Virus genome (UHGV): UHGV-0054069
DNA length: 64,000 nt
From: a virus
Strand: one strand, 5' to 3'
Made by a program: the position numbers and the translations under genes. Each line of letters opens with the position of its first letter. The first letter of the stretch is position 1. Shown here one piece after another: positions 22,645-58,304 of this stretch. The notes under the pieces are model-generated. The model saw only the letters and a list, made by a program, of their open reading frames with translations, was not told where the DNA came from and did no database searches.

Positions 22645-22672
22645 TTGACTAACTGTCAAGATGGTGTTAATA
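22645..22672 (+). promoter_or_regulatory. candidate sigma70-type promoter with flanking 10-bp inverted repeat (22657-22666 / 22691-22700)
   Basis: TTGACT-N16-TTAATA; CAAGATGGTG ... CACCATCTTG perfect inverted repeat. Confidence 0.3.
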
Positions 22673-22722
22673 TTTCTTAGTAGGTATTCTCACCATCTTG
22701 GCTCAAGAAGTAAGGTGATTAA

Positions 22723-23295: not shown

Positions 23296-23324
23296 AAGGC
23301 TCCCGTAAAAAGGAGCCTTTTTTG
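23296..23324. terminator. bidirectional rho-independent terminator between convergent gene blocks
   Basis: GGCTCC-loop-GGAGCC stem followed by TTTTTTG on + strand, A-run upstream; separates + structural block from - thyA block. Confidence 0.55.
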
Positions 23325-23327
23325 TAT

Positions 23328-24227
23328 CTACTTACCTACTGACAAGGGAGCTTCAATCTTACCAGCATGTCGGTAATCTTTCAAGCCACCTATAAAGTCA
23401 CTTGCTGTTAAGTGTTTCAGGTCATCAATACTGTTTAACTCAACATCAATCTCAAATTTAGGTGCTGGGTAATCTTCGTTACCTAACAACTGATAAACTT
23501 GCTGCATATGGTTCAGGTAAATCTGGGTATCACCAAAAGTACCAACAAGATAACGTGGAGTTAAACCTGTCATCTTACAAAGCACATGTAGGATAAACCC
23601 ATAAGATGCAATGTTAAAGGGCAAACCTAAAAATGTGTCGCATGAACGCTGATACCATTTCAAGTCAACCTCTCCAGTATTCGAGATATAAATCTGGAAA
23701 AGTACATGACAAGGGGCTAATGCCATAGAGTTGCTTGAGATATCTGCTGCATTCCATGCGTTAACCAGCATGTAACGGTCTGTAGGAGACTTTTTCATCT
23801 TATCCACAAGATTACTCAACTGGTCAACGACAACCCCACCATGCCCCTCAAAAGCCCTCCATTGGACACCATAGATTCGTCCACCTGCATCTTCCAACCA
23901 ATCATTTTCAGTTGCATAGGTTGTCTTTAACCAACGTTCAAAATCATCTGTCCAGATAGTCCAACGCTCTCCATCGTTCTCTCCCCAAGTTCTGTAACGT
24001 AAATCACCCAACTTGTTTTCACCATTCAAAAACCACAATGCTTCACCGATAACTTGACGCATAAAGGTTTGCTTTGAAGTGATTAACGGGAAACCACTAC
24101 GCATATCAAAACGAAATTCTGGAGGTGCAAACGTTGTAACAACCTTTCCAGTTCTTGTTTTACGTTCTTCCCCAACAGAAAGAACATGGTTGAGAATCCC
24201 TTTGTAACTTATATCTGCTTGTGACAT
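23328..24227 (-). CDS. thyA: thymidylate synthase
   Basis: Active-site region LAPCHVLFQ, conserved folate-binding segments; 299 aa. Confidence 0.85.
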   Translation of the reverse strand: MSQADISYKGILNHVLSVGEERKTRTGKVVTTFAPPEFRFDMRSGFPLITSKQTFMRQVIGEALWFLNGENKLGDLRYRTWGENDGERWTIWTDDFERWLKTTYATENDWLEDAGGRIYGVQWRAFEGHGGVVVDQLSNLVDKMKKSPTDRYMLVNAWNAADISSNSMALAPCHVLFQIYISNTGEVDLKWYQRSCDTFLGLPFNIASYGFILHVLCKMTGLTPRYLVGTFGDTQIYLNHMQQVYQLLGNEDYPAPKFEIDVELNSIDDLKHLTASDFIGGLKDYRHAGKIEAPLSVGK

Positions 24228-24228
24228 A

Positions 24229-24774
24229 TTAGAAACGTCCTCTTACTTGTGGAACATAAATGTTGAATACAACGCTGTCATCTTTCGATGGTTTTGACTG
24301 TATTCTAGCAAAAGTTGACTCATCATACAAGTACTCAAAGAAACCCTTATAAGGCAGCTTCACAGTTGCTTCTTCAGTCACTTCACGGATATATGTTTGA
24401 CAAATTGCATCTGCATATGGTAAAGCTTTGATAAGAATACCTGCTCCACCAATTATACAAACATCTTGCTCAATACTACTATCCAGATGTTTTAAGAATG
24501 CCCCAAAAGCGTCTGGGTGAACCTTAGCAAACATTACATCTTCTCTACCAAAATCTATACCTTCATACGGTAATGAGTTTGTCAGAACAAGATTATCACG
24601 GTCTGGTAAAGGTTTACTTCCAAGACTCTTGAAAGTGTCATTACCCATAACTACCAATTGACCTGTAGTAATCTTCTTGAACTCTTGCATATCTTGCTTA
24701 TTACGAGGCCAAGGCATACCAGAGGGGCAACCAAACTCCCCGTTAAGACCGTTTGCAAAAACCAATTTAATCAT
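24229..24774 (-). CDS. dihydrofolate reductase
   Basis: N-terminal DHFR-like motif (KLVFANGLNGEFG...MPW), 181 aa, adjacent to thyA. Confidence 0.75.
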   Translation of the reverse strand: MIKLVFANGLNGEFGCPSGMPWPRNKQDMQEFKKITTGQLVVMGNDTFKSLGSKPLPDRDNLVLTNSLPYEGIDFGREDVMFAKVHPDAFGAFLKHLDSSIEQDVCIIGGAGILIKALPYADAICQTYIREVTEEATVKLPYKGFFEYLYDESTFARIQSKPSKDDSVVFNIYVPQVRGRF

Positions 24775-25043
24775 TGTGTGAACCCTTTTACAATAAACCA
24801 GTTAGCAATATTCTTCACAGTTTTTACTGGATGGAATACTAAGCGTGGTTGTGGTTGATAACTGCCATAAGCCCAGAAAGAGATGATGTTGTCACAATCA
24901 GTGCAACGTGTGTACTCTTCTGCTACGTTCCCTGCCACAATCTCTGTAATCTCACCTTGGAAATTTGTACCCCCACAATGGGGGCATTTTAGAGGTTCAC
25001 CATCTTGGTTGTAGCATTGCTCAAACTTCTCAAAAAGTTTCAT
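24771..25043 (-). CDS. zinc-ribbon protein (hypothetical)
   Basis: CPHCGG ... CTDCDN four-Cys arrangement; 90 aa. Confidence 0.45.
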   Translation of the reverse strand: MKLFEKFEQCYNQDGEPLKCPHCGGTNFQGEITEIVAGNVAEEYTRCTDCDNIISFWAYGSYQPQPRLVFHPVKTVKNIANWFIVKGFTQ

Positions 25044-25561
25044 TTTTTGTTTACCTTAAAAGTTTGCTGGATATCAACTACGAAGTCTAAATCATCACAC
25101 TCACTTGATAGGAAATCTTCAAAGTGTTTTGGTATAAAACTTAGGAAATCCATAGAACCCAAATCACCTACTAAGCGAATGTAATAATCGTTCTCGCAAG
25201 TTGCATTAACTACATGTCGGCCTATGTATGGCTTCACAACCTCTCTGATATCATCTATGAAGATGTTCAAAATAGCTTTGAAGGATTTAGGGTATTGAGT
25301 ACCTTCATACAAGTCAATGCTGGCTTCAGTCTTTACAGAGATTGATTTAGCATCTCTGAACTCGGTTGAGAAAAGATGAGTGGGGAGAATACAAAGTGAA
25401 TCTCCAGTATCTTCATCGACCAACTCAATAGTCCCTGCATCATAGCTAGTTTCAATCAGTATTTCACCCTCTTGTGACTTTTTGGTTTCAAGGTGAGTGG
25501 TGATAATACCTCTCAACATTGATGCTTCTGGGAGCAGTAAGTTGATTCCAATCTTTTGCAT
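25040..25561 (-). CDS. hypothetical protein
   Basis: 173 aa ORF, translationally coupled in - strand operon. Confidence 0.45.
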   Translation of the reverse strand: MQKIGINLLLPEASMLRGIITTHLETKKSQEGEILIETSYDAGTIELVDEDTGDSLCILPTHLFSTEFRDAKSISVKTEASIDLYEGTQYPKSFKAILNIFIDDIREVVKPYIGRHVVNATCENDYYIRLVGDLGSMDFLSFIPKHFEDFLSSECDDLDFVVDIQQTFKVNKK

Positions 25562-25562
25562 G

Positions 25563-26066
25563 TCATACCTCTACAAATGTTTGCTTCACGTTATCGTATG
25601 AGTAGAATTTTATACACTTTTGAGTATTCCAGTCAACCTTTTCTTTGTAAGAGATACCTTTTGAGATTCTCTTACCAAGAGTTTGATAGATGATATCTCG
25701 CAGCTTTCTGTACTCAGGTGCATCATCTAAAACTTTTGCATCTGTAGTTGCCTTGTAACCGTCTATGGAACGTTGATTCCAATCCTGCTGAGTTGGTGAC
25801 ATTGGCTTGTAAAGCTGTGGTAGATGATTGTAAAGCATGTTACCTTCTTCTAAAGCAAGCTTCAGTTGGTGAAGGTACTCATTCAAACGACCATCCTCTT
25901 CAAGCCACTCATACAGAGACTGTAAAGCCCCTAGATTGTTGTTGTAATGGGCAGCACGTTTTACAGAACCCTTGTCAGTACGATAAGGTGACTTTGGAAG
26001 ACTCAGTATCTGACCTTTCAAAACGTTGAATCCAAAGACCAAATCTATTTTCATGGGAAGAGACAT
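25563..26066 (-). CDS. hypothetical protein
   Basis: 167 aa ORF in - strand operon. Confidence 0.45.
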   Translation of the reverse strand: MSLPMKIDLVFGFNVLKGQILSLPKSPYRTDKGSVKRAAHYNNNLGALQSLYEWLEEDGRLNEYLHQLKLALEEGNMLYNHLPQLYKPMSPTQQDWNQRSIDGYKATTDAKVLDDAPEYRKLRDIIYQTLGKRISKGISYKEKVDWNTQKCIKFYSYDNVKQTFVEV

Positions 26067-26416
26067 TTGATATCCTCATTTTTAAAAGTGAATGTTGTGT
26101 AGTTAGTACCATCAACATTTAACCAGATAGCTTTCACAGAAACACCATCAAGGTTGTTGTACAGTTCTTTAACAAACGTATTTCGAACATCATGAGCACA
26201 GGTTGTCTCAAGTTTAATGTTAGAAATGGCTGAACCAATAGTCATGTAGCCAGCTACACGACTCTTCTCAGTATGCTTGATTCTTCCTTCTTGATACATC
26301 TGCTTCAGGACTCCCAAGAGTTCTTCACCAAATGACTTCTCAGCACTCGTCGGTTTCCCGTAGAAACCAAGTGCAAAGTTGTCGTTGAAAATTGCATTCT
26401 TACGTTTCATAATCAA
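26051..26416 (-). CDS. hypothetical protein
   Basis: 121 aa ORF in - strand operon. Confidence 0.45.
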   Translation of the reverse strand: MIMKRKNAIFNDNFALGFYGKPTSAEKSFGEELLGVLKQMYQEGRIKHTEKSRVAGYMTIGSAISNIKLETTCAHDVRNTFVKELYNNLDGVSVKAIWLNVDGTNYTTFTFKNEDIKCLFP

Positions 26417-26712
26417 TCTGCCTTACTTAAGTTGAAGTTTAAACCAAGTTTATCACAAACACTAATCATGTAGTCAAGAGAAACTTTACCGCTACCGTTT
26501 AAGATGTTTGAAACTCTTGCTTGAGAAATCTCACAAATCTTTGCTACCTGAACTTGTGATAGATTGTTTCTTTTCATGTGAATGTGTAGTTTCTCAGAGA
26601 TATAGAACTTCATCTCATCCACATCCATTCCAGCTATGTATGCTTCCATTTCAGACTCTCTATCAGCTTCCCAATCATCTTGGGGTGCATAAGGGTCGAA
26701 GACTTTATTCAT
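26413..26712 (-). CDS. XRE-family helix-turn-helix DNA-binding protein
   Basis: C-terminal HTH signature (LSQVQVAKICEISQARVSNILNG). Confidence 0.55.
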   Translation of the reverse strand: MNKVFDPYAPQDDWEADRESEMEAYIAGMDVDEMKFYISEKLHIHMKRNNLSQVQVAKICEISQARVSNILNGSGKVSLDYMISVCDKLGLNFNLSKAD

Positions 26713-26908
26713 CCTTCTTCCTCCGTTTACGCGAAGTGTCTATTAAGGAATCTATACTGGTTGCTCTTACATTCTCACGAGTCCCGTTGACGAAGTGGTC
26801 TAGAGCCTCTACAACTGTATTAAAATCCTTAGCCCAAACTCTGTAAATAACTACTCCATCGTCGTCAACAACTTCACCATAGTCGATTCTACAGATGTTC
26901 TTTTTCAT
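26705..26908 (-). CDS. hypothetical protein
   Basis: 67 aa ORF overlapping both neighbours. Confidence 0.4.
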   Translation of the reverse strand: MKKNICRIDYGEVVDDDGVVIYRVWAKDFNTVVEALDHFVNGTRENVRATSIDSLIDTSRKRRKKDE

Positions 26909-27285
26909 TGTGGCAGACCCATGCAGTGACGGTTGATGATAAAGTACTCAAACCCATCTAAAACAGACTGTGTAACACGTTCTTCTACAGCTTTAGTTTC
27001 AGAAATCTGTTCAGAACTTAGCACATCAATATTCTCAGAAACCATCATATCAGCCACATCGTTGTAGTAACCACCCATAGTGTGGTAGATGAGGTCAGTT
27101 GTACGGTCTGTCATTTCCTGAAAAGTTTCTTGAGTGATTGGTTTAGTTAACTCTCCAGACTTAGAAACAATCTTTTGAGAAAGCTCACAAGACTCCAGTT
27201 TAACTTTACCGTAGTCCACATTTGGCATTACTGCATAAGCATTGAAGCTTAGTGCTGCAAAGAGACATAGTGCAATCTTTTTCAT
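26905..27285 (-). CDS. secreted/periplasmic protein (signal peptide)
   Basis: Likely start MKKIALCLFAALSFNAYA (signal peptide, AYA cleavage-type site) with GGAGGT RBS; track start 27360 is probably too far upstream. Confidence 0.5.
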   Translation of the reverse strand: MKKIALCLFAALSFNAYAVMPNVDYGKVKLESCELSQKIVSKSGELTKPITQETFQEMTDRTTDLIYHTMGGYYNDVADMMVSENIDVLSSEQISETKAVEERVTQSVLDGFEYFIINRHCMGLPQ

Positions 27286-27337
27286 AATTACCTCCAAACT
27301 AACTAGTGGGTTCCTATATAATATCTTGTATATTGCT

Positions 27338-27365
27338 AGTATACCCACTAAGAATCTCATGTCAA
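27338..27365 (-). promoter_or_regulatory. sigma70-type promoter (minus strand) with overlapping 8-bp inverted repeat (27304-27311 / 27341-27348)
   Basis: Minus-strand TTGACA-N16-TATACT; inverted repeat TAGTGGGT/ACCCACTA spans the -10 and +1 region. Confidence 0.45.
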
Positions 27366-27442
27366 CAACTTTCTACATGTATAACCAAGAGAAAAATAAG
27401 ATACCGATAATCACTACTGCAATTGCAATCCCCATAGTGTAA

Positions 27443-28543
27443 TCACTCATAATCTCTAATAACAAGCCCAACAGGGAACTGTAAAGACCCCTTACGAGTC
27501 ATCTTCTGGAACTGAACCGTCAGAGGTTTACCGATAAACTCTTCAGGATGTTCAGCAAGATACTTCTTCTTCTCATGGGTAGTTTTCCATGAAACATCTA
27601 CAAAGATGTTAGGAAGAGTCTCTACAACGAACTTACCATGCCCCCGCTTATCAGTCTTCACACCAGTAACTTTAAACTCCTCTGTGTGCATCTTCTTGTG
27701 TTTAATCAGGAAGTATGAACGGTGACCACACTCATAGAAGGATTCTGGGGAGATTGAACGGTACATTGCCCCTTCAAACTTCAGCTTAACCCAATTATCA
27801 TGTGCTTTGTCGAACTCTTCCCAAGAATTAACACGGATAGTCTGTACAGGAACAACCCTGCAAGCTTCACCAAGTTCAACAAGAGGTGAATTGTCAATAA
27901 CTTCACGACGCTCAGGCCAAGACTTGGTATTATCACAGATATCATACCAGTAGAACTTAAGAAGGTGACGGTCTGGATTGTCAGTATTCTTAATCATGGA
28001 TACAATATCCTCTAAGTCCCAACCATGAGCGTAAATCTCACCATCAAAATCTTCAACTTGTGGGTGACACTTCAGCATTAGTAACAAATCTGGGATTAGC
28101 TCTGCTGGTACATTATAAACAGTGTTTTCACGAGAATAAGCCGTGAAGCTTACTGTATCAACATCTCTTGAAATCCTGCAACGAACACCATCAAGTTTAG
28201 GTTGAGCGTCAGCAGGGAAATTCAGGTATTTTGCGTGACTAATCTTTACAGCATCGTGAGCAAGCTGTACACCAACCTTTTCAACGTTCTCTGCTTCAGA
28301 CTTTGTGTAAGCATAACCTTTACGGTCTACTTGCTTCTTGTACTTTGCAGAAACTTCAAAGAGAGCTTGCTGTTCAGCGTTACGCTCATTCTTTTTACCG
28401 ATGTTCTTCGGTTCTGCTGTGTACTCTTCAAACATCATTTTGCCGTTCTCTTTACCGTAAGTGGTAACCACCTTGTCACCTACAGCAACACACGACCAAA
28501 CGTTAAAGGAACCATCTTTGTTTTGTTTGTACAGAATTGTCAT
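27443..28543 (-). CDS. ATP-dependent DNA ligase
   Basis: Adenylation motif KLDG (PKLDGVRC), 366 aa, T7-ligase-like size. Confidence 0.75.
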   Translation of the reverse strand: MTILYKQNKDGSFNVWSCVAVGDKVVTTYGKENGKMMFEEYTAEPKNIGKKNERNAEQQALFEVSAKYKKQVDRKGYAYTKSEAENVEKVGVQLAHDAVKISHAKYLNFPADAQPKLDGVRCRISRDVDTVSFTAYSRENTVYNVPAELIPDLLLMLKCHPQVEDFDGEIYAHGWDLEDIVSMIKNTDNPDRHLLKFYWYDICDNTKSWPERREVIDNSPLVELGEACRVVPVQTIRVNSWEEFDKAHDNWVKLKFEGAMYRSISPESFYECGHRSYFLIKHKKMHTEEFKVTGVKTDKRGHGKFVVETLPNIFVDVSWKTTHEKKKYLAEHPEEFIGKPLTVQFQKMTRKGSLQFPVGLVIRDYE

Positions 28544-29078
28544 TTGTCTTTCTCTCCCACACCTTTTTTAATTTTTCAACAGAAACAATGTTTCCAGATT
28601 GAGTCATCGCATTTCCAGACAAAGAGAAGAAACTCTCTGGGAATGGTAATTCTAACTTAGAATAAAAATCATAGTAAGAACCACCTGACTCTCTGTATGC
28701 AATCTTCAGACTACCATTATGTCTATACGAAAATAAGACAAGAGAACCGTCTGGGTATTTTAAGCATTTTCCAAATTGTTTCTTGTACAAGTAGTCAGCA
28801 AAATCAATGTATAAATCCTTTAAATACTCAGAGACATTCTCAACTTGTCTTACACCGAGATTTTTGCAAATATGTTCGTATTTTAGATAATCAAACCTAT
28901 ATGGTGTTGCTCCAGTTTCATGTAAGAATTTTAGTACAGCGAGTTTTACAGGTTGATACATTAATGGGTTTGAGTATTGCCTTTTCTTCTCTTGATACCA
29001 AGGTATTGAGTAGCTTTGATAGGCCATTCTCAGGTTACTGTAAGACTCTCTAAATCTATCCTCTTCACTCATTTTCAT
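28503..29078 (-). CDS. hypothetical protein
   Basis: 191 aa, Tyr-rich; RBS aaaggg upstream. Confidence 0.45.
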   Translation of the reverse strand: MKMSEEDRFRESYSNLRMAYQSYSIPWYQEKKRQYSNPLMYQPVKLAVLKFLHETGATPYRFDYLKYEHICKNLGVRQVENVSEYLKDLYIDFADYLYKKQFGKCLKYPDGSLVLFSYRHNGSLKIAYRESGGSYYDFYSKLELPFPESFFSLSGNAMTQSGNIVSVEKLKKVWERKTNDNSVQTKQRWFL

Positions 29079-30143: not shown

Positions 30144-30170
30144 ATAAGTCTCCTATACAATATATAGTAT

Positions 30171-30199
30171 ATGGTACTCTTCCATGAGCACCTTGTCAA
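30171..30199 (-). promoter_or_regulatory. candidate sigma70-type promoter (minus strand)
   Basis: Minus-strand TTGACA-N17-TACCAT just downstream of DNA polymerase stop. Confidence 0.3.
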
Positions 30200-30204
30200 C
30201 ACTA

Positions 30205-32904
30205 TTAGTGGACTTCAAGCCACGATTTACCAACCTTACCAGTACCCGTTACCAAAGTATCCTTCTTCAGTCCCAAGTTTTTAGAAGCTTGACCATAATA
30301 CCAGTCAGTTACTGCCTTAACTTCTGCTGTCATGCTTTCTGGACATTCCCAGCTTGTTTCGTCGTGGTAAGCACAAAGTAAACGAGCACCGATAGCTGGC
30401 TTACGACCATTTAGTTTCATCAAACCTTCATCAATCATACGACGACAAGCAAGGTTTATTGCTTCATTCTGAACTTGTGCTTCTGAACCCATCAACAGAT
30501 AGTTCAAGAGTTTGTGTGGAGATTTACACCACAACCACGCCCCAGCAACCTGAACAAATCCACCTTTAGCAATTGCAGCAGTTTTACCAAAGACCTCTTC
30601 AAGAGCTTTCTTAGTTGCTTTAAAGTCAGCTTCTAAGTTATCAATCAGTTTCTTAATCTTCGGCAAACGAACAAAGTAAGTCTGCTTAGTCAATGCACCT
30701 TCTTGAGTAGTTGAAGCTTTGATGGTCTTAGCAAACTTCTCATCACCCGCACCGAACAGCAGTGCATAGATACCGTTTTTAGCTTTTTTACGACCCTTAC
30801 TAATCTCGTGAAGAAGATTCTCATCCTGAGTCATACGACAAGTCAAGATATCCTGCTCATCATTCAAGCTGAAGTAAATACTGTTCAGTGTGTGAGCATC
30901 AGTGCCTGAATAGACTACGTACAAGTCGTTTTCAGAGTCATAACGCAGATACTTGTCAACTTCTGGGTTAAGGTATTCGTCGAAGTGTTTGCAGTAATAA
31001 CGACCATCTTCTTGACGAATAAACTCAATTTCTTCCTTACCTTCTGTTACTGCTTTGGTGAACTCTTTATCACCCATAAAGTTACACAGTAACACAAGCT
31101 GTGCAGAGTTCATATCAACGGATACTACGTTGGTTCCTTCTTCACAAATCCAGACTGCCCTCATTGGTTCCCCGTAAACAGCAGCCCCAGAAGGTACGTT
31201 CACAATACCATACTGTGTCATACGACCAGTTGAAGTACCAAACACCATTGCACCAGCACTCAAGCGACCATCTGGACGAATCTGGTTTAACCAACCTTTC
31301 TCGTCATCTTTTGAGTTCTCAATAGTTCTACGTCGGTGCATCAAAGTATAGTACTTCGCAATCTTTTGTCCAAGTTCACCTTCAATGGTGTCATAAGAAG
31401 ATTCAGTAAGTTTAGGTGAAGTACGAATCAAGCAAGGCTCAAGCAAATCTGTGTACTTCCTAACAGACCAGTTATGCTCAATGTAATGAACCCCTTCATG
31501 CTCAATGTAGTTCAATCCACAACGTTCAACCATCTCATCCCACTTAGGATGTTTACGAATCATCTTCTTATTATCTTTGAAGCGACATACCTTGATTGGA
31601 CGGTTATCAGAATCCTTTTTGTAGTTCCAATCATCAGGAATCCAGCCAACAGATTTCAAGTATTCCTTCACCACTGCAACCTGAGTCATACGTGAAACTT
31701 CAAACTCAATTGGTGTATAAGGTGCATCAACAAGACCTGTGTAACGGCTTGACTCCATTTCAAAGTGATTTACTACGTGGTTATTGTAGTACTTCACAGT
31801 TTTAACTGTCTTAACTGGCTTCCAATCCTTACACTTCTTGCCAGCCTTAGCATTCAACTCATTGCAGATTGCACGAGCATCTTTCATTGCTACAAAACCT
31901 TCCCTGTACTCTTCACCAGTGACAGTGTTAGTTGGAGTGTAGCAATTACGTTTCTCAATGTTGAAAATCTTTGTAGTTGGTTTCCCATATGGCTTGATAG
32001 GGTACGTCTTCAGTTCCCCTTCACGCATCTGCTCACGATACTTTGTCTTTGGATACTTTGTGATACGTTTCAAACCATCTACATGACCAAATGTTTCAAC
32101 ATACTCATTCCATGCCTTGGCAAACTCTTCACCAGTTACTTTACCTTTCGTCTTAATAGTCGGAGGTAAGAACGGTTCAACTTCAGAGGCTAACTCAGAA
32201 GTCATCTTATCCAGTTCTTCTACACAGGACTTCATAAGGTCAATGTTAGCTTTCCAACCATTAATAGCTTGTTGACTCATCCAGAAAGAAGTCTCTTTAG
32301 CTCGCATGTAGGTTTCGTAAGTATCTACACCACACTTCTTAAGCTTAAGGTATTCATTATCCATAGCACGTTTTGCTTTGGCGTTGATTCGAATATCCTC
32401 AACAACACGGTTAAGAATATCAGCGTTCCACACACCCCACTCTTCAATCTCTGGTTTACGAACACCAACACGAGCACCCCATGCAGCCAAGCCATGAGCA
32501 CCTTTGTAACCTTTTGGTGTAGGTCTATCCATCCACTGCACACGAGATTGTATAAGTGAATCCTGAAAGAAGTCACTCCAAGGTTTACACTTAGGATTAT
32601 CAAAGTTCCACAGGTCAGGTGCAATATGGTTGAACACCCACCAGTCATAACCAAGACCATTGTGGATACAAAGGCGTTTGGCTTTCAATGCAAACTCCAC
32701 ACCTTCACGCAAACCACCTTTGATGTATTTTGTATACTTGTGACCAAGGATAGGCTCATCAGTGAAAACCCACACAGCAGGTTCATCACTATCATCTTTG
32801 TAATCTGCGAATGCCATAACGTGAGCTTTTGTAAACTCAAGCAGCAACCCGTCAGTTTCTGTATCACCAACCAAATGTAAGTTTTCAAAATCTACATTGT
32901 TCAT
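30205..32904 (-). CDS. DNA polymerase, family A, with 3'-5' exonuclease domain
   Basis: Exo I motif DTETDGL near N-terminus; pol motif B-like K..IYALLFGAG and motif C-like YHDE near C-terminus; 899 aa. Confidence 0.85.
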   Translation of the reverse strand: MNNVDFENLHLVGDTETDGLLLEFTKAHVMAFADYKDDSDEPAVWVFTDEPILGHKYTKYIKGGLREGVEFALKAKRLCIHNGLGYDWWVFNHIAPDLWNFDNPKCKPWSDFFQDSLIQSRVQWMDRPTPKGYKGAHGLAAWGARVGVRKPEIEEWGVWNADILNRVVEDIRINAKAKRAMDNEYLKLKKCGVDTYETYMRAKETSFWMSQQAINGWKANIDLMKSCVEELDKMTSELASEVEPFLPPTIKTKGKVTGEEFAKAWNEYVETFGHVDGLKRITKYPKTKYREQMREGELKTYPIKPYGKPTTKIFNIEKRNCYTPTNTVTGEEYREGFVAMKDARAICNELNAKAGKKCKDWKPVKTVKTVKYYNNHVVNHFEMESSRYTGLVDAPYTPIEFEVSRMTQVAVVKEYLKSVGWIPDDWNYKKDSDNRPIKVCRFKDNKKMIRKHPKWDEMVERCGLNYIEHEGVHYIEHNWSVRKYTDLLEPCLIRTSPKLTESSYDTIEGELGQKIAKYYTLMHRRRTIENSKDDEKGWLNQIRPDGRLSAGAMVFGTSTGRMTQYGIVNVPSGAAVYGEPMRAVWICEEGTNVVSVDMNSAQLVLLCNFMGDKEFTKAVTEGKEEIEFIRQEDGRYYCKHFDEYLNPEVDKYLRYDSENDLYVVYSGTDAHTLNSIYFSLNDEQDILTCRMTQDENLLHEISKGRKKAKNGIYALLFGAGDEKFAKTIKASTTQEGALTKQTYFVRLPKIKKLIDNLEADFKATKKALEEVFGKTAAIAKGGFVQVAGAWLWCKSPHKLLNYLLMGSEAQVQNEAINLACRRMIDEGLMKLNGRKPAIGARLLCAYHDETSWECPESMTAEVKAVTDWYYGQASKNLGLKKDTLVTGTGKVGKSWLEVH

Positions 32905-37765: not shown

Positions 37766-37794
37766 TTGACAGGGGAGTATGAAGCATGTAATAT
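37766..37794 (+). promoter_or_regulatory. sigma70-type promoter with hairpin spanning spacer
   Basis: TTGACA-N17-TAATAT; inverted repeat GGGAGTA ... TACTCCC bracketing the -10. Confidence 0.45.
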
Positions 37795-37847
37795 TGTACT
37801 CCCAATAAGATTTGAATTGATAGTTAATTTGAGAAAGAGGTATTAAA

Positions 37848-45828: not shown

Positions 45829-46024
45829 AATCTTTAAAGGCTTCAAAGAAGATGCTCCTATGCTTCTCTGGGTAATTTTCTTGCTGAACATGTTCATTGA
45901 CTTTAAACAAGGTTTAATGTTCGGGTTTATGCTAGTATGGCTAATCATTGAGATTCTAGACATTCAGTTTGGATGGAGTACCAAGGTTAAAAACTTCCTT
46001 GATAATCTCTTAAACAAAAATTAA
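45818..46024 (+). CDS. small membrane protein
   Basis: 68 aa with two hydrophobic segments. Confidence 0.4.
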   Translation: MLDKIFKGFKEDAPMLLWVIFLLNMFIDFKQGLMFGFMLVWLIIEILDIQFGWSTKVKNFLDNLLNKN

Positions 46025-46027
46025 AAT

Positions 46028-46052
46028 AAGGGTCTCTTCGGAGACCTTTTTC
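46028..46052 (+). terminator. rho-independent terminator
   Basis: GGGTCTC-TTCG-GAGACC followed by TTTTT; near-identical to terminator at 41905. Confidence 0.65.
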
Positions 46053-46067
46053 ATATCAGGAGTTAGA

Positions 46068-48212
46068 ATGGTTAAAGTACAAATTATCAAAAAGAACGGC
46101 TCACTTGAAAAACCAGATATTAACAAAATCTTGACAGCCGTTGAGAAGTCAGCTAATCGTGTTGGCTACAAAGAACTTCCACTAGAAGTTATCCATGCTT
46201 TAGAAGCAGCTTTCAAGAGGATTCTTGCAAAGGCATCTAATCAGAATGCTTTACTAATCTCTGTAGATGACATTCACAGTATTGTAGAAGGTGCTCTGGC
46301 TGTCACTAACCATGAGATTTATGAGTCATACTCAACGTATCGTAACTACCGTAAAGAGGTGGCACAGAATTGGGATTATCTGTATCAGAAGACTAAAGAC
46401 ACTCTCTTCTTAGGTGACCGTGAGAATGCTAACTTTGACAGTAGCTTAATCTCTACAAAGGGTTCTATTATTCGTGGATACCTGACAAAAGAAATCTTTA
46501 AACAGTATCACTTAACACCAGAAGAAATAAGAGCTATTGAAGATGGATTTATCTACATTCACGACCTAAGAGACTTGGTATTTGGTGGAATCAACTGTTG
46601 CTTATTTGATATTGGCAAAGTCTTGGAAGGTGGCTTTGAAATGTCTGGTATTGAATACTGTGAACCAAAGTCTGTTCTGTCAGCTTTACAGGTTATCGGT
46701 GACGTTGTTCTATCAGCAACTGCACAGCAATTTGGTGGATTCACTATCCCAGAGATTGATAAGATTTTAGTACCATATGCTAAGAAGTCTCAGAAGTATC
46801 ATGAGGAAATGGCTATTGCTTATGGAATCCCTCAAGACAAGATTTACCACTATGTCAAGAACCAGTTACAAATTGAGTTAACTCAGGGCTTTCAATCCCT
46901 TGAGATGAAACTTAACACTGTCCCTTGCAGTCGTGGTGACTTTGCTTTTACAACTTTAACATTTGGATTACTTGAACCAGATATGTCAAACCGTGATAAC
47001 CGTCTGCAATACATGATTGCTAAGACTATCTTGGATGTTCGTATGAATGGTCAAGGTAAAGCCAAGAAACCAGTAGTATTCCCTAAACTGGTATATATCT
47101 ATGATGAGAAAAGACACTCTCTGGATATCTGGCAAGGTCAACTTTATGGAAAAGCTATTGAGTGTTGCTCTAAAGCAATGTACCCAGACTTCCTGAGTGT
47201 ATCTGGTCATGGTGCTGTAGCAGATGCTTTTAAACGCTCGGGTAAAGTGATTTCACCGATGGGTTGCAGGGCTTATCTGTCACCATACCTTGATGAAGAT
47301 GGTGAAGAGTTCTATGTAGGACGTGCTAACATTGGTGCTGTCTCACTGAACTTGCCAATGATTTATCAGTATGCTAAGGAGAATCAACTTGGCTTCTTTG
47401 AAGAGATTGACAAGTACCTTGAAATGATTCGAGCATTCCACCAGAAGCGTTATGAAATGATTGCTAACATGCCAGCAAGTTCTAACCCTCTGGCGTTTAC
47501 TCAAGGTGGACTGTACAAAGGTCATAAGAAACCAACTGACAAGATTGGTTGGGATACTGTGAAATCCTTCACAGCTTCTTTTGGTGTTACCGCACTAGAT
47601 GAGCTTTCTGTTTTGGCTGGAGAAGGTAGACTTCATGAGTCATCTTCAGAAGGTATTGCACATCAAGTTATGGAGCACCTAAACGCCAAGCTGGAGCAGT
47701 TTAAGCAAGAAGATGGATTCTTATATGCCCTTTATGGTACACCTGCTGAGAGCCTTTGTGGTACGCAATTGAAGCAGTTTCGTCACATGTTTGGAGTTAT
47801 TAAAGGTGTCTCCGATAAAGAGTACTTTACAAATAGCTTCCACATGAACGTAGCAGCAGATATTACACCATTTGAGAAGCAAGACTTAGAAGAACCTTTC
47901 TTCCATTCCTGCAATGGAGGGCATATTCAATATGTTCGTATTGCTAACCCAGAGAATCATAAAGCTATTGAAGCATGTGTTACAAGGGGTATGGGTAAGG
48001 GCTTCTATCAAGGTGTTAACTTTGACTTAGCAATCTGTGAAAATTGTGGTCACCGTCCAAGTGCAGATGTTGAAGAATGTCCTAAGTGTCACTCACATGA
48101 TATCTCTGTTATTAACCGTGTTTGTGGATATCTTGGTTGGACTAAAATCAAGGGAACCTCAAGAATGAACGATGCAAAAATTGCAGAGATTAAAGACAGA
48201 AAATCTATGTAA
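46068..48212 (+). CDS. nrdD: anaerobic ribonucleoside-triphosphate reductase (class III)
   Basis: C-terminal glycyl-radical motif RVCGYLG and Cys4 zinc site (CENCGH...CPKCH); 714 aa. Confidence 0.85.
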   Translation: MVKVQIIKKNGSLEKPDINKILTAVEKSANRVGYKELPLEVIHALEAAFKRILAKASNQNALLISVDDIHSIVEGALAVTNHEIYESYSTYRNYRKEVAQNWDYLYQKTKDTLFLGDRENANFDSSLISTKGSIIRGYLTKEIFKQYHLTPEEIRAIEDGFIYIHDLRDLVFGGINCCLFDIGKVLEGGFEMSGIEYCEPKSVLSALQVIGDVVLSATAQQFGGFTIPEIDKILVPYAKKSQKYHEEMAIAYGIPQDKIYHYVKNQLQIELTQGFQSLEMKLNTVPCSRGDFAFTTLTFGLLEPDMSNRDNRLQYMIAKTILDVRMNGQGKAKKPVVFPKLVYIYDEKRHSLDIWQGQLYGKAIECCSKAMYPDFLSVSGHGAVADAFKRSGKVISPMGCRAYLSPYLDEDGEEFYVGRANIGAVSLNLPMIYQYAKENQLGFFEEIDKYLEMIRAFHQKRYEMIANMPASSNPLAFTQGGLYKGHKKPTDKIGWDTVKSFTASFGVTALDELSVLAGEGRLHESSSEGIAHQVMEHLNAKLEQFKQEDGFLYALYGTPAESLCGTQLKQFRHMFGVIKGVSDKEYFTNSFHMNVAADITPFEKQDLEEPFFHSCNGGHIQYVRIANPENHKAIEACVTRGMGKGFYQGVNFDLAICENCGHRPSADVEECPKCHSHDISVINRVCGYLGWTKIKGTSRMNDAKIAEIKDRKSM

Positions 48213-50211: not shown

Positions 50212-50523
50212 ATGGAAAAGATTTATAACACTCGTAAGATTCAGATTGCAGTTCTGTGTCAGTTTATGGTTGAGCAACATAACGCACATTATTGTGGTAC
50301 GGGATTTCTAGCTTTTGGTGGTGAATACATCCCATTTAAGAAAGCTGTAAAGATGTACAATGAGTCACTTGCTAGTGACAAAGAGATAAAACAACTTAAG
50401 CTGACTTATGACAAGAAAGCTAAGAAGATTGTATGTCTGAACTATTCAATCAAACCTACAGATTACGTTACAAGCAACATCGGTGAAGAAGGCTTCTTCA
50501 AAGTGTTGAAAGTTACACAGTAA
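50212..50523 (+). CDS. hypothetical protein
   Basis: 103 aa ORF followed by terminator. Confidence 0.4.
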   Translation: MEKIYNTRKIQIAVLCQFMVEQHNAHYCGTGFLAFGGEYIPFKKAVKMYNESLASDKEIKQLKLTYDKKAKKIVCLNYSIKPTDYVTSNIGEEGFFKVLKVTQ

Positions 50524-50535
50524 GAGTGTATGATT

Positions 50536-50565
50536 AGGGAACTGTAAAAGGTTCCCTTTTTATTT
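50536..50565 (+). terminator. rho-independent terminator
   Basis: GGGAAC-loop-GTTCCC stem followed by TTTTTATTTT. Confidence 0.55.
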
Positions 50566-50575
50566 TGGAGAAATC

Positions 50576-51091
50576 ATGTACTACGCAAACCTTAAGCGTG
50601 CTGCTGCAATGTCTGTTTTACGTCTTGATTTTGATGAACGTCAAGAGTTCATTGAATCTCACCAATATGACCCTTCAAACTCTAATCACATGGTTCTTTG
50701 GAATCGTGGAAAGTACCGTGATAGCTCCCTCTTTGCATATTATCCTCACTACACTATTGATAACCTTTATGAGTACTGTGTTGTAAAGAACACTATAACA
50801 ACTCTTAACAAGCTTTGCCGTTACTCTGGTAAGCAATCTTTCACATTAGGCCACCATAAGCCCGTTACAAAGGGTGGGGAGCACCATTGCTCTAACTGGT
50901 TTATCCAGACTCAACTTGATAACCAGAAGCAAGGAGAGAAGCTTCTAGAAGCCCCTAAGATGACCTATGCAGAACAAAAAGAATATATTAAAAATAATAT
51001 GCCACCAATGCTTGACAAGGAATATGCAGTTCTGGCAATATCTCTCTTGTTGAAGTTCGAGACTGTTTATGAGGCGACTTATAATGGCTAG
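50576..51091 (+). CDS. HNH endonuclease-like protein
   Basis: HNH-type core LGHHKPVTKGGEHHCSNWFIQTQLDNQKQGEK (HH...GG...N...N). Confidence 0.5.
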   Translation: MYYANLKRAAAMSVLRLDFDERQEFIESHQYDPSNSNHMVLWNRGKYRDSSLFAYYPHYTIDNLYEYCVVKNTITTLNKLCRYSGKQSFTLGHHKPVTKGGEHHCSNWFIQTQLDNQKQGEKLLEAPKMTYAEQKEYIKNNMPPMLDKEYAVLAISLLLKFETVYEATYNG

Positions 51092-52302: not shown

Positions 52303-54129
52303 ATGTCTAAATCAGTTTATGCAGTACCAGCAGGTCTTAATGCGGATGCTTACAAAGCTGGCCATATCTACCAGTACCCAAGTGCTACACAGTATCTGAT
52401 GCTAAATCTTACACCTCGTGGTGATAAGTGGTTTAACACTCCACTTGATATTGACGGTGTAGTTGCTTTTGGTATTCAACGTTTCGTTAAAGATTACTTA
52501 GTAGACCACTGGAATGCTACCTTCTTTGAACGAGATAAGAAAGAAGTTGTTGACGAAATCTTAGAAATCATGAACGGTGTTCTCGGTGCAGATGCGATTG
52601 GTCGTGAGCATTGGGAAGAACTTCACGATTTAGGCTATCTGCCAGTCGAAGTCTACTCTGTAGAAGAGGGTACAGTGGTTCCAATGCGTGTTCCAATGAT
52701 TATCTTCAAGAATACTGTAGAGGGCTTCCATTGGGTAGCTGGATATCTGGAAGATGCTTTCTCTGCTGAAATTTGGAAAGCTTCTACGATTGCCACTATT
52801 GCATTACACTACAAACGTATCTGTAAGCAATGGGCTGATGTAACCTGTGATAATGACTTCCATTTACCTTGGCAGTGTCATGATTTTGCAATGCGTGGTA
52901 TGTCAGGCTTTACAGATGATGCTTTTAACGCTGTAGGTCACCTGACAAGCTTTAAAGGTACTGACAGCTTCCCTGCTGTCTACACTGCTAAACGTGCTTA
53001 TGGTCAGTTTATGGAAGTAAGTGATATCGGCAACTCTGTACCAGCTACTGAACACTCTGTGATGTGCGCAAACATTTCATGGAATATGAAAGACTTGTCA
53101 GAGGAAGATATTCATTCACAGTACATCATGCAGTCTGATAGCTTGCTGGATGCAAAACGTTGGCGTGGTGAGGTTAAAACCTTTGAGCATTTACTGGTAG
53201 ACGTATATCCAACTGGTATTGCAAGTGTTGTTTCAGATACTTACAACTTCTGGCGTACTATTACAGAGATTCTCCCAGAACTCCGTGAAGTTATCCTGAA
53301 GCGTGAAGGTAAACTGGTAATACGTCCAGACTCTGGAGACCCCATTCACATTGTTGCTGGTTATCGTGCTGTTGAGTGGGAAAATGCCAAGAGTATGTTC
53401 TACAAACATATGAAAGAAATTGCACCGAACAATGATAAACTCCTGAATCTTATTCAGTATTGTGAGTTGCAGGATATGGGTTATGGGTTTGCTGCATGGC
53501 TTATCTCTGAAGGTTATGAGTTAGTTGTTGATAAAGAAGATTTTGAAACTGCTGAAACAGTTAACTTGAAAGATTTTAATAAGACCGGAAATATTGTTGT
53601 TAAGCGTATGCTGACAGCAGAGATTGATGGGGCTATCCCAACTCTCTACAACATCTTTGGTGGTCGTGTGAACAGTAAAGGTTACAAAGTACTGGATGAG
53701 CACATCGGTTTAATCTATGGTGATTCTATCACCCTTGAGCGAGCTAATGAGATTCTTGGTCGTCTTGCTGACAAAGGTTTTGCAAGCTCTAACGTGGTCT
53801 TTGGTGTTGGCTCATACACTTACCAGTACCTGACTCGTGATACCTTTGCATTTGCTGTCAAGGCTACTCTTGCTCAGATGGACGGTGAAGAAATCATGCT
53901 GGCAAAAGACCCTAAAACTGACAGTGGTCTTAAGAAGTCTGCTTTTGGTGGTGTAGTTCCTATGTGTGACGGTGATAAACTGGAAGCTGTAGACGGCTTT
54001 GGCTTTGCAGAGTTTGAAGGTGTACTGGATAATCCAGAATGTGCTTTGAAGTTGGTGTTTAGCAACTCTCAACCATATGGTTATGTAAACCTTTGTGATG
54101 TTCGAAATAACATTGACAAACAACTCTAA
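52303..54129 (+). CDS. nadV: nicotinamide phosphoribosyltransferase (NadV/NAMPT-like)
   Basis: NAMPT-type motifs IRPDSGDP and LIYGDSI; start at MSKSVYA (track start 52261 is TTG inside a hairpin). Confidence 0.8.
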   Translation: MSKSVYAVPAGLNADAYKAGHIYQYPSATQYLMLNLTPRGDKWFNTPLDIDGVVAFGIQRFVKDYLVDHWNATFFERDKKEVVDEILEIMNGVLGADAIGREHWEELHDLGYLPVEVYSVEEGTVVPMRVPMIIFKNTVEGFHWVAGYLEDAFSAEIWKASTIATIALHYKRICKQWADVTCDNDFHLPWQCHDFAMRGMSGFTDDAFNAVGHLTSFKGTDSFPAVYTAKRAYGQFMEVSDIGNSVPATEHSVMCANISWNMKDLSEEDIHSQYIMQSDSLLDAKRWRGEVKTFEHLLVDVYPTGIASVVSDTYNFWRTITEILPELREVILKREGKLVIRPDSGDPIHIVAGYRAVEWENAKSMFYKHMKEIAPNNDKLLNLIQYCELQDMGYGFAAWLISEGYELVVDKEDFETAETVNLKDFNKTGNIVVKRMLTAEIDGAIPTLYNIFGGRVNSKGYKVLDEHIGLIYGDSITLERANEILGRLADKGFASSNVVFGVGSYTYQYLTRDTFAFAVKATLAQMDGEEIMLAKDPKTDSGLKKSAFGGVVPMCDGDKLEAVDGFGFAEFEGVLDNPECALKLVFSNSQPYGYVNLCDVRNNIDKQL

Positions 54130-54141
54130 CTGAGTATTATA

Positions 54142-54166
54142 AGAGGCTCCTACGGGAGCCTTTTTA
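54142..54166 (+). terminator. rho-independent terminator
   Basis: GAGGCTCC-TACG-GGAGCC followed by TTTTT. Confidence 0.65.
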
Positions 54167-54182
54167 ATTTCTGGAGAATGCT

Positions 54183-54518
54183 ATGAAAATTAAGCAGATG
54201 AATATCAACCTTATCTTAGAAGAACGTTGGGAAAACATCAAATGTACTGAAGATGGTTATAAGTTTGTTAACAAGATTATGCAGGAAGCTCAGACTCAAC
54301 TTGCTTCTGAGATTCATACAACGATTACTTTGAAGGTTTACATCAAAGGTCTTCCACAAAATCACCAAGAAGCCCTTGACCTGTTCTGTGAACACTTCTA
54401 TAATCCGAACAAAAGAATCCTTGAAGATAATTTTGCAGTCTCTTCAAGCATCGTTCATGACAGAAGCTTTATCCTGTTCAAAACTGTAGGAGAGAATGTA
54501 TGCAAGGTTATTGGTTAG
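54183..54518 (+). CDS. hypothetical protein
   Basis: 111 aa ORF. Confidence 0.4.
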   Translation: MKIKQMNINLILEERWENIKCTEDGYKFVNKIMQEAQTQLASEIHTTITLKVYIKGLPQNHQEALDLFCEHFYNPNKRILEDNFAVSSSIVHDRSFILFKTVGENVCKVIG

Positions 54519-54680: not shown

Positions 54681-54710
54681 TTGACAGAGGTATCTATAAA
54701 AGAATATAGT
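54681..54710 (+). promoter_or_regulatory. sigma70-type promoter
   Basis: TTGACA-N18-TATAGT upstream of rIIA-like gene. Confidence 0.4.
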
Positions 54711-54742
54711 TACCTCACCAAACAACAAAGAGGAATCCTGTT

Positions 54743-57118: not shown

Positions 57119-57147
57119 TTGACAGGGGCTGAAAAGCCCCTTAAAAT
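57119..57147 (+). promoter_or_regulatory. sigma70-type promoter with perfect hairpin in spacer
   Basis: TTGACA-N17-TAAAAT; spacer is GGGGCTGAAAAGCCCC hairpin (same 16-mer also at 52266-52281). Confidence 0.45.
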
Positions 57148-57182
57148 ACGAAACTGTTAATTAACTAAAGAGAGATATTAAG

Positions 57183-58304
57183 ATGACTACTAAAACTAAA
57201 GCACAAATCGACGCAGAAATCTATGCACTGGTAATGGAAGGTAAACTGACCAAGACTGCCATTGCAAATCGTTACAATACTTCAACACGCTCTGTTGGTC
57301 GTGCTGTAGAACGTCACCAAGCAACTCTGGTTAAGGCTCCAGCTAAACCAGCCAAAACTCTGAAGTCTATTGCAAAAGCTGCTAAGACTTCTAAGAAAGC
57401 AACTACTAAGACTACAGTTGCAAAAGCTGTTAAGAAAGCTGTTAAGAAAGAAGAAGCCAAAGCCGAACCAGTAAATGCTCTACATGATGCAATGCAAAGT
57501 AACAGCAAGATTGAGTACATGATTACTGGTGATTCTGTTATCATGACTTTCGGTGCAGAGTCTGAGATTGTTGAGTCAACTCATGTAAACTTTGAAGAGA
57601 TTAAACTCGCAGTCGCAGCAGGTCAGTACAAGAAAGCATTTGACCTGATGAATATCCGTAAGTCTATTGAGAACTTCACTCAGGGAGCTATCACTATCAA
57701 GGGTGATAACCTGTACTACGGTGCTGTTCAGATGCGTTCAACTCTGGTAGACCGTATCCTGACCATGATGAAGAATGGTGATGAAGGATTTACCCATCTA
57801 TTAGCGTTCTTCGAGAAGCTGATGGAAAACCCATCCAAAGATTCTGTAGAACAACTTTGGGGATTCGTATCACATCTTGACGTTGAGATTGACGAAGAAG
57901 GTTACATTATTGGTTGGAAGAAAGTAACTAGCCGTGGTGGTAAACTGTTTGACTCTCGTACTTGCAAGGTTCCTAATGATTTGGGTAACATTGTAGAGAT
58001 GCCACGTTGGATGGTTGATAATAACCGTAACGTAACTTGCTCTCAGGGTCTTCATGTTGGTGCTTGGGATTATGTAACAAGCTTCTCTGGAGATACCATC
58101 CTGAAAGTTCGTGTACACCCACGAGATGTTGTATCAGTACCAACTGATTACCAAGATATGAAAATGCGAGCTTCCCGTTATGAAGTAGCAGCAATCGTGA
58201 ATGGCCGTCGTGAAGTTGTTAAAGAGTGGGATGGTTCAGAAGCACTACACGTAGTTGTAGGTACTGCTGGTGAACTGATTTCTCAGCGTAAACGTGAAGT
58301 TTAA
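57183..58304 (+). CDS. rIIB: rIIB-like protein (tentative)
   Basis: 373 aa ORF directly downstream of rIIA-like gene; assignment by synteny and size only. Confidence 0.4.
   Translation: MTTKTKAQIDAEIYALVMEGKLTKTAIANRYNTSTRSVGRAVERHQATLVKAPAKPAKTLKSIAKAAKTSKKATTKTTVAKAVKKAVKKEEAKAEPVNALHDAMQSNSKIEYMITGDSVIMTFGAESEIVESTHVNFEEIKLAVAAGQYKKAFDLMNIRKSIENFTQGAITIKGDNLYYGAVQMRSTLVDRILTMMKNGDEGFTHLLAFFEKLMENPSKDSVEQLWGFVSHLDVEIDEEGYIIGWKKVTSRGGKLFDSRTCKVPNDLGNIVEMPRWMVDNNRNVTCSQGLHVGAWDYVTSFSGDTILKVRVHPRDVVSVPTDYQDMKMRASRYEVAAIVNGRREVVKEWDGSEALHVVVGTAGELISQRKREV

Follow-up and report, generated by a model that had tools for sequence, protein, structure and literature searches.

In the 64,000-nucleotide stretch of the virus genome UHGV-0054069 analyzed here (hereafter the window), the minus strand carries, between the gene for an ATP-dependent DNA ligase and that for a small exported protein, a predicted sigma-70 promoter overlapped by an 8-bp inverted repeat, and comparison with related phages indicates that this repeat is a stem conserved as base pairing. 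We give a probability of about 0.55 to the reading that the region is an internal sigma-70 promoter cassette whose promoter-spanning hairpin insulates two transcripts from each other, with three accessory genes behind it. The original prediction, made from the letters of the window, had described a self-contained early operon in which the repeat served as operator for a helix-turn-helix (HTH) regulator encoded by the third gene. We consider the covarying promoter-spanning stem to be the new part, a modestly new regulatory element, and the genes to be ordinary.

Promoter and covarying stem

On the minus strand, the -35 hexamer TTGACA (27360-27365) and the -10 hexamer TATACT (27338-27343) are separated by a 16-nt spacer, as originally described for 27338-27365, and this TTGACA-N16-TATACT site has a consensus score of 11 out of 12, tied for the best promoter-like site between 20 and 34 kb. 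The segment between the ligase stop and the exported-protein start codon was aligned across ten distinct relatives, comprising public phages and Logan/ENA contigs found via homologues of the exported protein. In these ten diverged relatives, neither hexamer varies and the spacing stays at 16 nt, while the spacer sequence is highly variable; the AAAGTTG just upstream of the -35 hexamer and the ribosome-binding site GGAGG of the signal-peptide gene (27291-27295, minus strand) are invariant or nearly so. This pattern argues for a sigma-70 promoter conserved under purifying selection on its hexamers and their spacing, the activity of which is predicted, and the usual 7-nt distance after the -10 hexamer would place the transcription start at about 27331. 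The promoter is not listed in the Felix O1 genome paper (PMC3185647). In Felix O1-type phages, the same promoter ("P1"), matching that of the window in hexamers and spacing, stands directly after the ligase gene; behind it come 200-400 nt of non-coding insert and then a second promoter ("P2"), which precedes the exported-protein gene.

The repeat is perfect over 8 bp, its arms TAGTGGGT (27350-27343) and ACCCACTA (27311-27304) standing 31 nt apart, and overlaps the promoter as originally described. Taken alone, it lies within chance: when the 87-nt intergenic segment was dinucleotide-shuffled 5000 times, 297 of the shuffles (5.9%) contained a perfect repeat of at least 8 bp, as did 200 of 5000 pieces of that length drawn at random from the window (4%), and the window has 3 matches to the repeat motif where 1.5 are expected. 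It becomes significant only through comparison with the relatives, among which at least six arm sequences occur, changed at nearly every position and all complementary, in the same register to the -10 hexamer and the leader. In the window, the 5' arm of the stem, (U)UAGUGGGU (27343-27351, minus strand), covers the final 8 nt of the spacer and reaches 1 nt into the -10 hexamer, and the 3' arm with which it covaries, ACCCACUA(G) (27303-27311, minus strand), lies in the 5'-untranslated region (UTR) and ends 8 nt before the ribosome-binding site. The arms TAGTGGGT and ACCCACTA are shared by the window and ESh21; Sf13 has AAACATAGCAAGT and ACTTGCTATGTTT, loci L120 and L124 have ACCTAGTAGGT and ACTTACTAGGT with an internal G.U pair, mistaenkt and EcSzw have TCCGGTAGT and ACTACCGGA, and P1 of the Felix O1-type phages has TGGTGAGTA and TACTCACCA. 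In the group of Sf15, Michonne, and HP1, the arms overall read [C/T]CTGACGGGT and ACCCGTCAG[G/A], and the outermost pair changes stepwise within this one lineage, from C-G in Michonne (CCTGACGGGT with ACCCGTCAGG) through a terminal C.A in Sf15, an intermediate form (CCTGACGGGT with ACCCGTCAGA), to T-A in HP1 and L126 (TCTGACGGGT with ACCCGTCAGA).

Across the 10 distinct sequences, standard pairs make up 83% of cells, and changes on both sides are seen in 8 of 10 pairs. None of 500 shuffles reached the observed percentage paired or the covariation score, and pairing fell to 30-53% in a control in which the partner was slid by 1-3 columns. RNAalifold found the same stem independently, with 7 compensated pairs, and the stem is present in the minimum-energy fold of every variant. 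A composite structure, in which an internal loop separates an outer stem (8-14 bp) from an inner one (5-8 bp), is predicted in all variants; the hairpin of the window folds at -15 kcal/mol (z = -2.6), its helix being interrupted (8-9 + 3 + 5 bp). A search against Rfam gave no match at E up to 1. Together, these comparisons suggest that the repeat is a stem conserved as base pairing and not as sequence, the pairing presumably taking place in RNA.

Between the arms lies an AT-rich leader, ATACAAGATATTATATAGG (27313-27331, minus strand), which, in contrast, is conserved in sequence and provides the loop and the inner hairpin (27320-27334) of the stem. The leader is kept behind both the P1 and the P2 forms of the promoter in all relatives, and a weak second copy occurs at 30152-30170, behind the promoter that follows the polymerase gene (11 of 100 shuffles). 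We regard it as a candidate for a site recognized by its sequence, be it an operator or an RNA element.

The cassette site in related phages

Among the relatives, the site of the cassette is an insertion/deletion hotspot. Upstream of P1 there is nothing (Sf13 and mistaenkt), a hydrophobic mini-open reading frame (ORF) of 25 or ~49 aa, a 260-nt segment, or a 205-aa ORF, and downstream of P1 the Felix O1-type phages have a GGT-rich array and P2. The window has the 25-aa hydrophobic mini-ORF (MSDYTMGIAIAVVIIGILFFSWLYM; 27373-27450, minus strand), which is annotated in ESh21; it starts with an ATG that overlaps the ligase stop codon and leaves 7 nt between its end and the -35 hexamer. The ~49-aa hydrophobic ORF, distinct from the 25-aa one, occupies that place in Sf15, Michonne, HP1, and L127. 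The 260-nt insert between ligase and promoter (L120:1233-1500, L125, L126, L130, and L131) is conserved among its carriers and includes a small hairpin, tccggggagatgctgtcccgga, and L124 has the 205-aa ORF in its stead.

The non-coding insert of the Felix O1-type phages, 200-550 nt between the ligase and exported-protein genes, is found at L016:1215-1520 (Felix O1) and L017:1105-1520 (wV8) and in L018, L005, L009, L010, L013-L015, and L127-L129; the window phage is without it. The insert contains P1 with its TGGTGAGTA/TACTCACCA stem and continues with a palindrome, CATCACTTAAGAG...TTTAAGTGATG, and with a degenerate GGT-rich tandem array, annotated as DR_4 in wV8 and duplicated in some phages, before ending in a highly conserved block that holds the second promoter, the -35 hexamer of which is flanked by ATAAGCTAT and ATAGCTTAT. 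It could be an iteron-like or a non-coding-RNA region.

A pattern scan of IMG/VR for more arm variants returned mostly unrelated phages with the same strong-promoter consensus, and the Felix O1-type copies that it yielded all carry one arm sequence. The pattern AAGTTGTTGACA-N16-TATRCT recurs in unrelated phage contigs (L020, L021, L023, L028, and many other IMG/VR loci) with long conserved upstream blocks, e.g. tagggaaagtacctagaaaataatttga... and aaaagtctaaaaatctttcaaaa..., which look like repeated cassettes with strong promoters from other phage groups.

Promoter-hairpin layout across the window

Nine of the 11 intergenic promoter-like regions in the window have a hairpin whose 5' arm contains or precedes the predicted start. 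The stem extends across the spacer or the -10 hexamer at the study site (27365, minus strand), at 30144-30205 on the minus strand (promoter at 30199), and at 22645-22722, 37766-37845, and 54681-54750 on the plus strand; at 57119-57190 (plus strand) the hairpin lies inside the spacer, and at 45999-46075, 50506-50580, and 54113-54185 (plus strand) terminator-like hairpins start 2-4 nt after the -10 hexamer. Fold z-scores of the regions other than the study site range from -1.7 to -4.4. By analogy, this arrangement in a Felix O1-like phage resembles that of the PeSL (promoter-early stem-loop) cassettes of T4-like phages, in which strong sigma-70 promoters are fused to stem-loops placed between the -35 and -10 hexamers or overlapping the -10 hexamer; PeSLs have been shown to attenuate upstream transcription, their stem-loops being described as active terminators or attenuators (Arbiol et al. 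2010, PMC2839356), and have been proposed to take part in cassette shuffling (PMC2839356; Comeau et al. 2014, PMC4122927).

Two of the regions deserve a closer description. At 22655-22700 (plus strand), a 12-bp stem, GUCAAGAUGGUG/CACCAUCUUGGC, lies across the -10 hexamer of a promoter between a tail-fiber gene and the gene of a 64-aa membrane protein, and this stem, unlike the covarying one at 27303-27351, is nearly invariant across the subfamily, the one difference seen being a C (window and HP1) versus a T (the three other relatives compared) that gives a U.G pair. At 30144-30205 (minus strand), the promoter stands directly after the DNA polymerase stop, and its spacer contains the 7-bp hairpin GGUGCUC-N6-GAGUACC; the leader here, ATACTATATATTGTATAGGAG, is similar to the conserved one of the study promoter. 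This post-polymerase promoter is kept in ESh21 and Sf13, the latter having an HNH endonuclease gene inserted just upstream of it.

Phage identity and gene context

Over positions 26000-28600 (2.6 kb), the window is ~97% identical to the Shigella phages ESh21 and ESh22 (Mooglevirus, Ounavirinae), with 99% identity in a 601-nt core (26880-27480), and 81-85% identical to other Mooglevirus and Suspvirus phages, the matching phage records for this stretch numbering 259 in all. Judged by this identity, the window comes from a Mooglevirus phage, that is, a Felix O1-like phage. The promoter and the three genes behind it, encoding proteins of 126, 67, and 99 aa, lie inside a long minus-strand block of co-oriented genes. 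Upstream in the unit, the DNA polymerase gene (30205-32904) is followed by several small ORFs and then by the ligase gene (27443-28543), which adjoins the cassette and the transcripts of which would run into it.

Downstream, the next gene begins 2 nt past the stop of the HTH gene, and six genes (encoding proteins of 119, 167, and 173 aa, a 90-aa zinc ribbon, DHFR at 24229-24774, and the thymidylate synthase ThyA at 23328-24227) fill 23328-26410 on the minus strand with no gap greater than 2 nt; the nine genes from the 126-aa gene to ThyA overlap or are separated by at most 2 nt throughout. A bidirectional terminator, AAGGCTCC-N8-GGAGCCTT (23296-23319, both strands), ends the unit and matches the Felix O1 terminators t79 and t80 (PMC3185647, Table 2), and the unit corresponds to the "genes 96-80" transcription unit of Felix O1, which ends at terminator t80 (PMC3185647). 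A terminator scan of the minus strand from 27365 to 23319 found no terminator-like site before 23296-23319. The idea of a self-contained operon must therefore be given up, because the promoter is internal to a long replication and nucleotide-metabolism unit and is followed by nine packed genes with a single terminator-like site at their end. In public annotation, the three genes appear as hypothetical proteins and a "transcriptional regulator"; among Felix O1-like phages they are conserved, ordinary accessory genes.

The three encoded proteins

The first gene (26905-27285, minus strand), with its ATG behind the GGAGG, encodes a 126-aa protein (phrog_4332) with a signal peptide, MKKIALCLFAALSFNAYA, and a mature three-helix bundle, and it is found in 258 phage records, i.e. 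in essentially every Ounavirinae genome including Felix O1. By inspection, the signal peptide starts with MKK, has the hydrophobic core IALCLFAALSF, and would be cleaved between NAYA and V; all homologues, including the remote P0041 and P0044, have a Lys-rich N terminus, a hydrophobic core, and small residues at -3 and -1. These conserved features of a Sec signal (signal peptidase I) bear out the earlier identification of a signal-peptide protein, and export, predicted to be to the periplasm, is credible. A lipoprotein processed by signal peptidase II was rejected: the lipobox [LVI][ASTVI][GAS]C is not matched by the I-A-L-C of the window, which has L at -1, and the cysteine is absent from most homologues. 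Cys33 and Cys121 are invariant in all homologues (two of them remote ones from the full profile search), which would indirectly fit a periplasmic location, and the protein is probably disulfide-bonded. Its AlphaFold model is a three-helix bundle (pLDDT 89; helices 25-42, 52-83, and 91-118), for which structure searches returned only generic helical bundles in the PDB and only its own family in BFVD. Searches against Pfam, NCBIfam, and PADLOC gave no match and PHROGs gave one family with function unassigned, and word-index searches together with a full profile search of 1.84 billion representatives gave only Ounavirinae-type relatives. An envelope target, superinfection exclusion, or interference with the host in the periplasm can be named as a role with low confidence, as a guess.

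The second gene (26705-26908, minus strand) overlaps the first by 4 nt, again as originally described, and encodes a 67-aa protein (phrog_4473) modeled as a β-hairpin plus helix, with a basic tail, IDSLIDTSRKRRKKDE. The tail (26705-26761, minus strand; the last 15-19 residues, …IDSLIDTSRKRRKKDE) is invariant even in homologues that are 67% identical overall. Both the ribosome-binding site of the HTH gene and its start are also encoded within the last codons of the 67-aa gene, an overlap that accounts for only part of the conservation of the tail. No curated family matched the protein, its sole family match being phrog_4473, with function unassigned, and a sequence search of the PDB gave spurious matches only; nothing resembling it came up. 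A by-eye suspicion that it is related to the HicB N-terminal domain found no support.

The third gene (26413-26712, minus strand) overlaps the 67-aa ORF by 8 nt and encodes a 99-aa protein (phrog_1373) of the XRE/Cro-C1 type with an acidic N-terminal extension. It scores 34.6 bits against HTH_3 (cut-off 23) and 30.6 bits against HTH_37 (cut-off 27), above the Pfam gathering thresholds for both, and the assignment as an XRE-type HTH regulator thus stands. The HTH segment, VAKICEISQARVSNI and close variants, is kept throughout the relatives, and its recognition helix, ISQ[A/S]RVSNI, is almost invariant. Likeness of the protein to HipB, HigA, and control-protein models is generic HTH similarity below family cut-offs. 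A type II antitoxin (HipB, HigA, or PezA) was rejected, with NCBIfam scores of 19-28 bits versus cut-offs of 48-290, and so was a toxin-antitoxin pair with the 67-aa neighbor, which matches no toxin family or fold.

The SUSP1 homologues of the three genes, agp037, agp036, and agp035, were all classed as "Not Fit" in a genome-wide CRISPRi-ART knock-down screen (PMC11879866, supplements); these homologues are dispensable on a laboratory host, and we count the three genes as accessory genes conserved in the Ounavirinae. Genes 83, 84, 87, and 88 of Felix O1, the last being the ligase gene, peak at 25 min and are classed as "middle" (PMC3185647). Going by gene order, gene 87 would be the homologue of the signal-peptide gene, in which case the "early" expression of the original prediction, doubtful as it is, would be an overstatement.

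Discussion

In the reading that we prefer, the promoter would re-initiate transcription of the nine packed genes, from the exported protein to ThyA, inside the polymerase-ligase-DHFR-ThyA unit and would set their expression independently of the upstream transcript. Because the 5' arm lies upstream of the predicted transcription start and the 3' arm in the 5' UTR, the hairpin would form solely in RNA coming from the ligase gene and not in promoter-initiated RNA. We infer an effect of the hairpin on this read-through RNA, in that it would insulate the two transcripts by attenuating read-through, by marking a processing site, or by stabilizing the 3' end of the upstream mRNA. Folding of promoter-initiated RNA gave no consistent alternative partner for the 3' arm, and a switch within that RNA is therefore unlikely; riboswitch-like alternative pairing was rejected on this ground.

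Several points weigh against this reading. For this phage, we infer all three of its steps, namely the transcription start, the read-through from ligase, and the effect of the hairpin. The wobble evidence amounts to two G.U pairs and two terminal C.A mismatches, and sense RNA, antisense RNA, and single-stranded DNA are not told apart by it. As an intrinsic terminator the hairpin is not canonical, since it has a 31-nt loop and an interrupted tail, GUUAGUUU, and was not picked up by the terminator scan; only about half of the lineages (the window, Sf13, and L120 types) have a U-rich tail behind the stem, the Sf15 and mistaenkt types having none, and classical intrinsic termination therefore cannot be the conserved function. 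The other promoter-spanning stem compared, at 22645 (plus strand), brings no covariation support, being invariant in sequence, and the cassettes of the window share a layout and not a sequence, unlike PeSLs with their repeated sequence of ~100 bp. Finally, no homology of the three proteins to any characterized protein stands behind the roles proposed for them.

A wider proposal, which we put forward tentatively, is that such a stem sorts transcripts by origin at most intergenic promoters of the Ounavirinae and marks points of cassette exchange, the leader possibly being bound by the HTH protein. Under this proposal, RNA from upstream would fold and then be terminated, cleaved, or stabilized, and promoter-initiated RNA would escape.

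Among the rival explanations, the one that survives best takes the stem and its inner hairpin as a processing site for RNase III, or for another double-strand-specific nuclease, that would cut the read-through RNA instead of attenuating it. The composite stem predicted in all variants, the U-tract missing from half of the lineages, and the intergenic position all fit such a site, and they recall the intergenic RNase III hairpins in the early and late mRNAs of T7, where a stem, an internal loop, and a second stem likewise stand between polycistronic genes without need of a U-tract. The coaxial helix in the window is, however, short and interrupted, shorter than in the T7 hairpins, and is interleaved with a host-type promoter, and elsewhere in the genome the promoter-hairpin cassettes have the appearance of ordinary terminators. 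We consider processing of this kind unlikely as the explanation of the stem.

Pairing at the level of DNA, as a single-strand or cruciform structure serving recombination (cassette shuffling) or the initiation of replication, seems improbable to us. It would account for the insertion/deletion hotspot at the site, for the iteron-like GGT-rich array beside the same promoter in Felix O1-type relatives, and for the AT-rich loop, a strong promoter with an AT-rich unwinding element being found at T7 and T4 origins as well, and PeSLs have themselves been proposed as recombination sites. On the other hand, a 31-nt loop strongly disfavors cruciform extrusion, the GGT array is absent from the window phage, and the cumulative GC skew has no inflection near 27.3 kb, turning instead at ~23.3 and 33 kb, where gene orientation switches. 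A replication origin at the cassette was rejected for want of a GC-skew signal there.

The model of the original prediction, in which the XRE-type HTH protein encoded downstream would have the repeat as its operator and autoregulate a three-gene early operon through it, is very unlikely. The repeat does overlap the spacer and the -10 hexamer, the HTH gene does lie downstream of the promoter, and dimeric HTH proteins commonly bind inverted repeats, so that the arrangement looks like Cro/C1 (XRE) autoregulation or like the C-protein circuits of restriction-modification systems, with a small HTH_3 protein encoded downstream of a promoter with an inverted repeat. In contrast to those circuits, the protein here is conserved and the sequence of the repeat is not: the arms are almost wholly different in six lineages, whereas the recognition helix stays constant, and the model of autoregulation through the repeat is therefore rejected. 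In addition, the HTH proteins of Sf15 and Sf17 are identical and those of the window and pEC-M719 near-identical, and yet the two members of each pair have different arms, or the arm in the 5' UTR before the gene is absent; the 31 nt between the arms are far for one dimer, and the unit is larger than three genes. Should the HTH protein act on this promoter, its site would more plausibly be the AT-rich leader than the repeat. The weakest explanation, that a functionless 8-bp repeat arose by chance in an AT-rich spacer and that recombination of whole cassettes produced the covariation, can point to the 4-6% of such segments that have an 8-bp repeat by chance and to the apparent exchange of cassettes between phages, but hardly accommodates six independent arm sets that are all complementary in one register relative to the -10 hexamer and the leader, the stepwise C-G, C.A, T-A series at the outermost pair within one lineage, or a degree of pairing reached by none of 500 shuffles.

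To our knowledge, Felix O1-like phages encode neither an RNA polymerase nor any known sigma modifier. According to the Felix O1 genome paper (PMC3185647), the timing and partition of Felix O1-like transcription are unknown, and a covarying hairpin around an internal host-type promoter would offer a concrete element for subdividing long transcription units. In the searchable Ounavirinae literature, no description of a covarying promoter-spanning stem was found. Phages of this kind are used against Salmonella, Escherichia coli, and Shigella, and from an engineering point of view the cassette may be both a natural insertion point and a portable promoter-insulator unit. An envelope function can reasonably be proposed for the exported three-helix-bundle protein, though the protein is not exceptional.

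Virulent phages are known to make exported proteins before lysis, as in the case of Imm and Sp of T4 and Llp of T5, and these counterexamples speak against the earlier view that an exported protein made early is unusual. The 126-aa protein has in common with them its small size, an N-terminal export signal, a pre-late gene, and dispensability in the laboratory, but it is without sequence or fold similarity to them and without a lipobox.

The closest comparison for the cassette as a whole is with the PeSLs. Both have an intergenic sigma-70-type promoter with a stem-loop in or over its -35/-10 region, followed by a ribosome-binding site and a start codon, both have insertion/deletion hotspots nearby, and for both it is proposed that upstream transcription is stopped or attenuated while transcription is restarted. 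The cassette described here differs in belonging to the Ounavirinae, another subfamily than the T4-like phages, and in its architecture, since instead of a compact G/C stem its arms stand 31 nt apart and enclose the -10 hexamer, the start site, and a conserved AT-rich leader; the evidence is also of another kind, covariation between genomes taking the place of reporter assays. Our results suggest that promoter-plus-hairpin cassettes, so far those of T4-like phages, are also present in another subfamily, and if this is true, PeSL-like cassettes would be a general solution among virulent phages and not one specific to T4, occurring here in a long-loop form with a leader.

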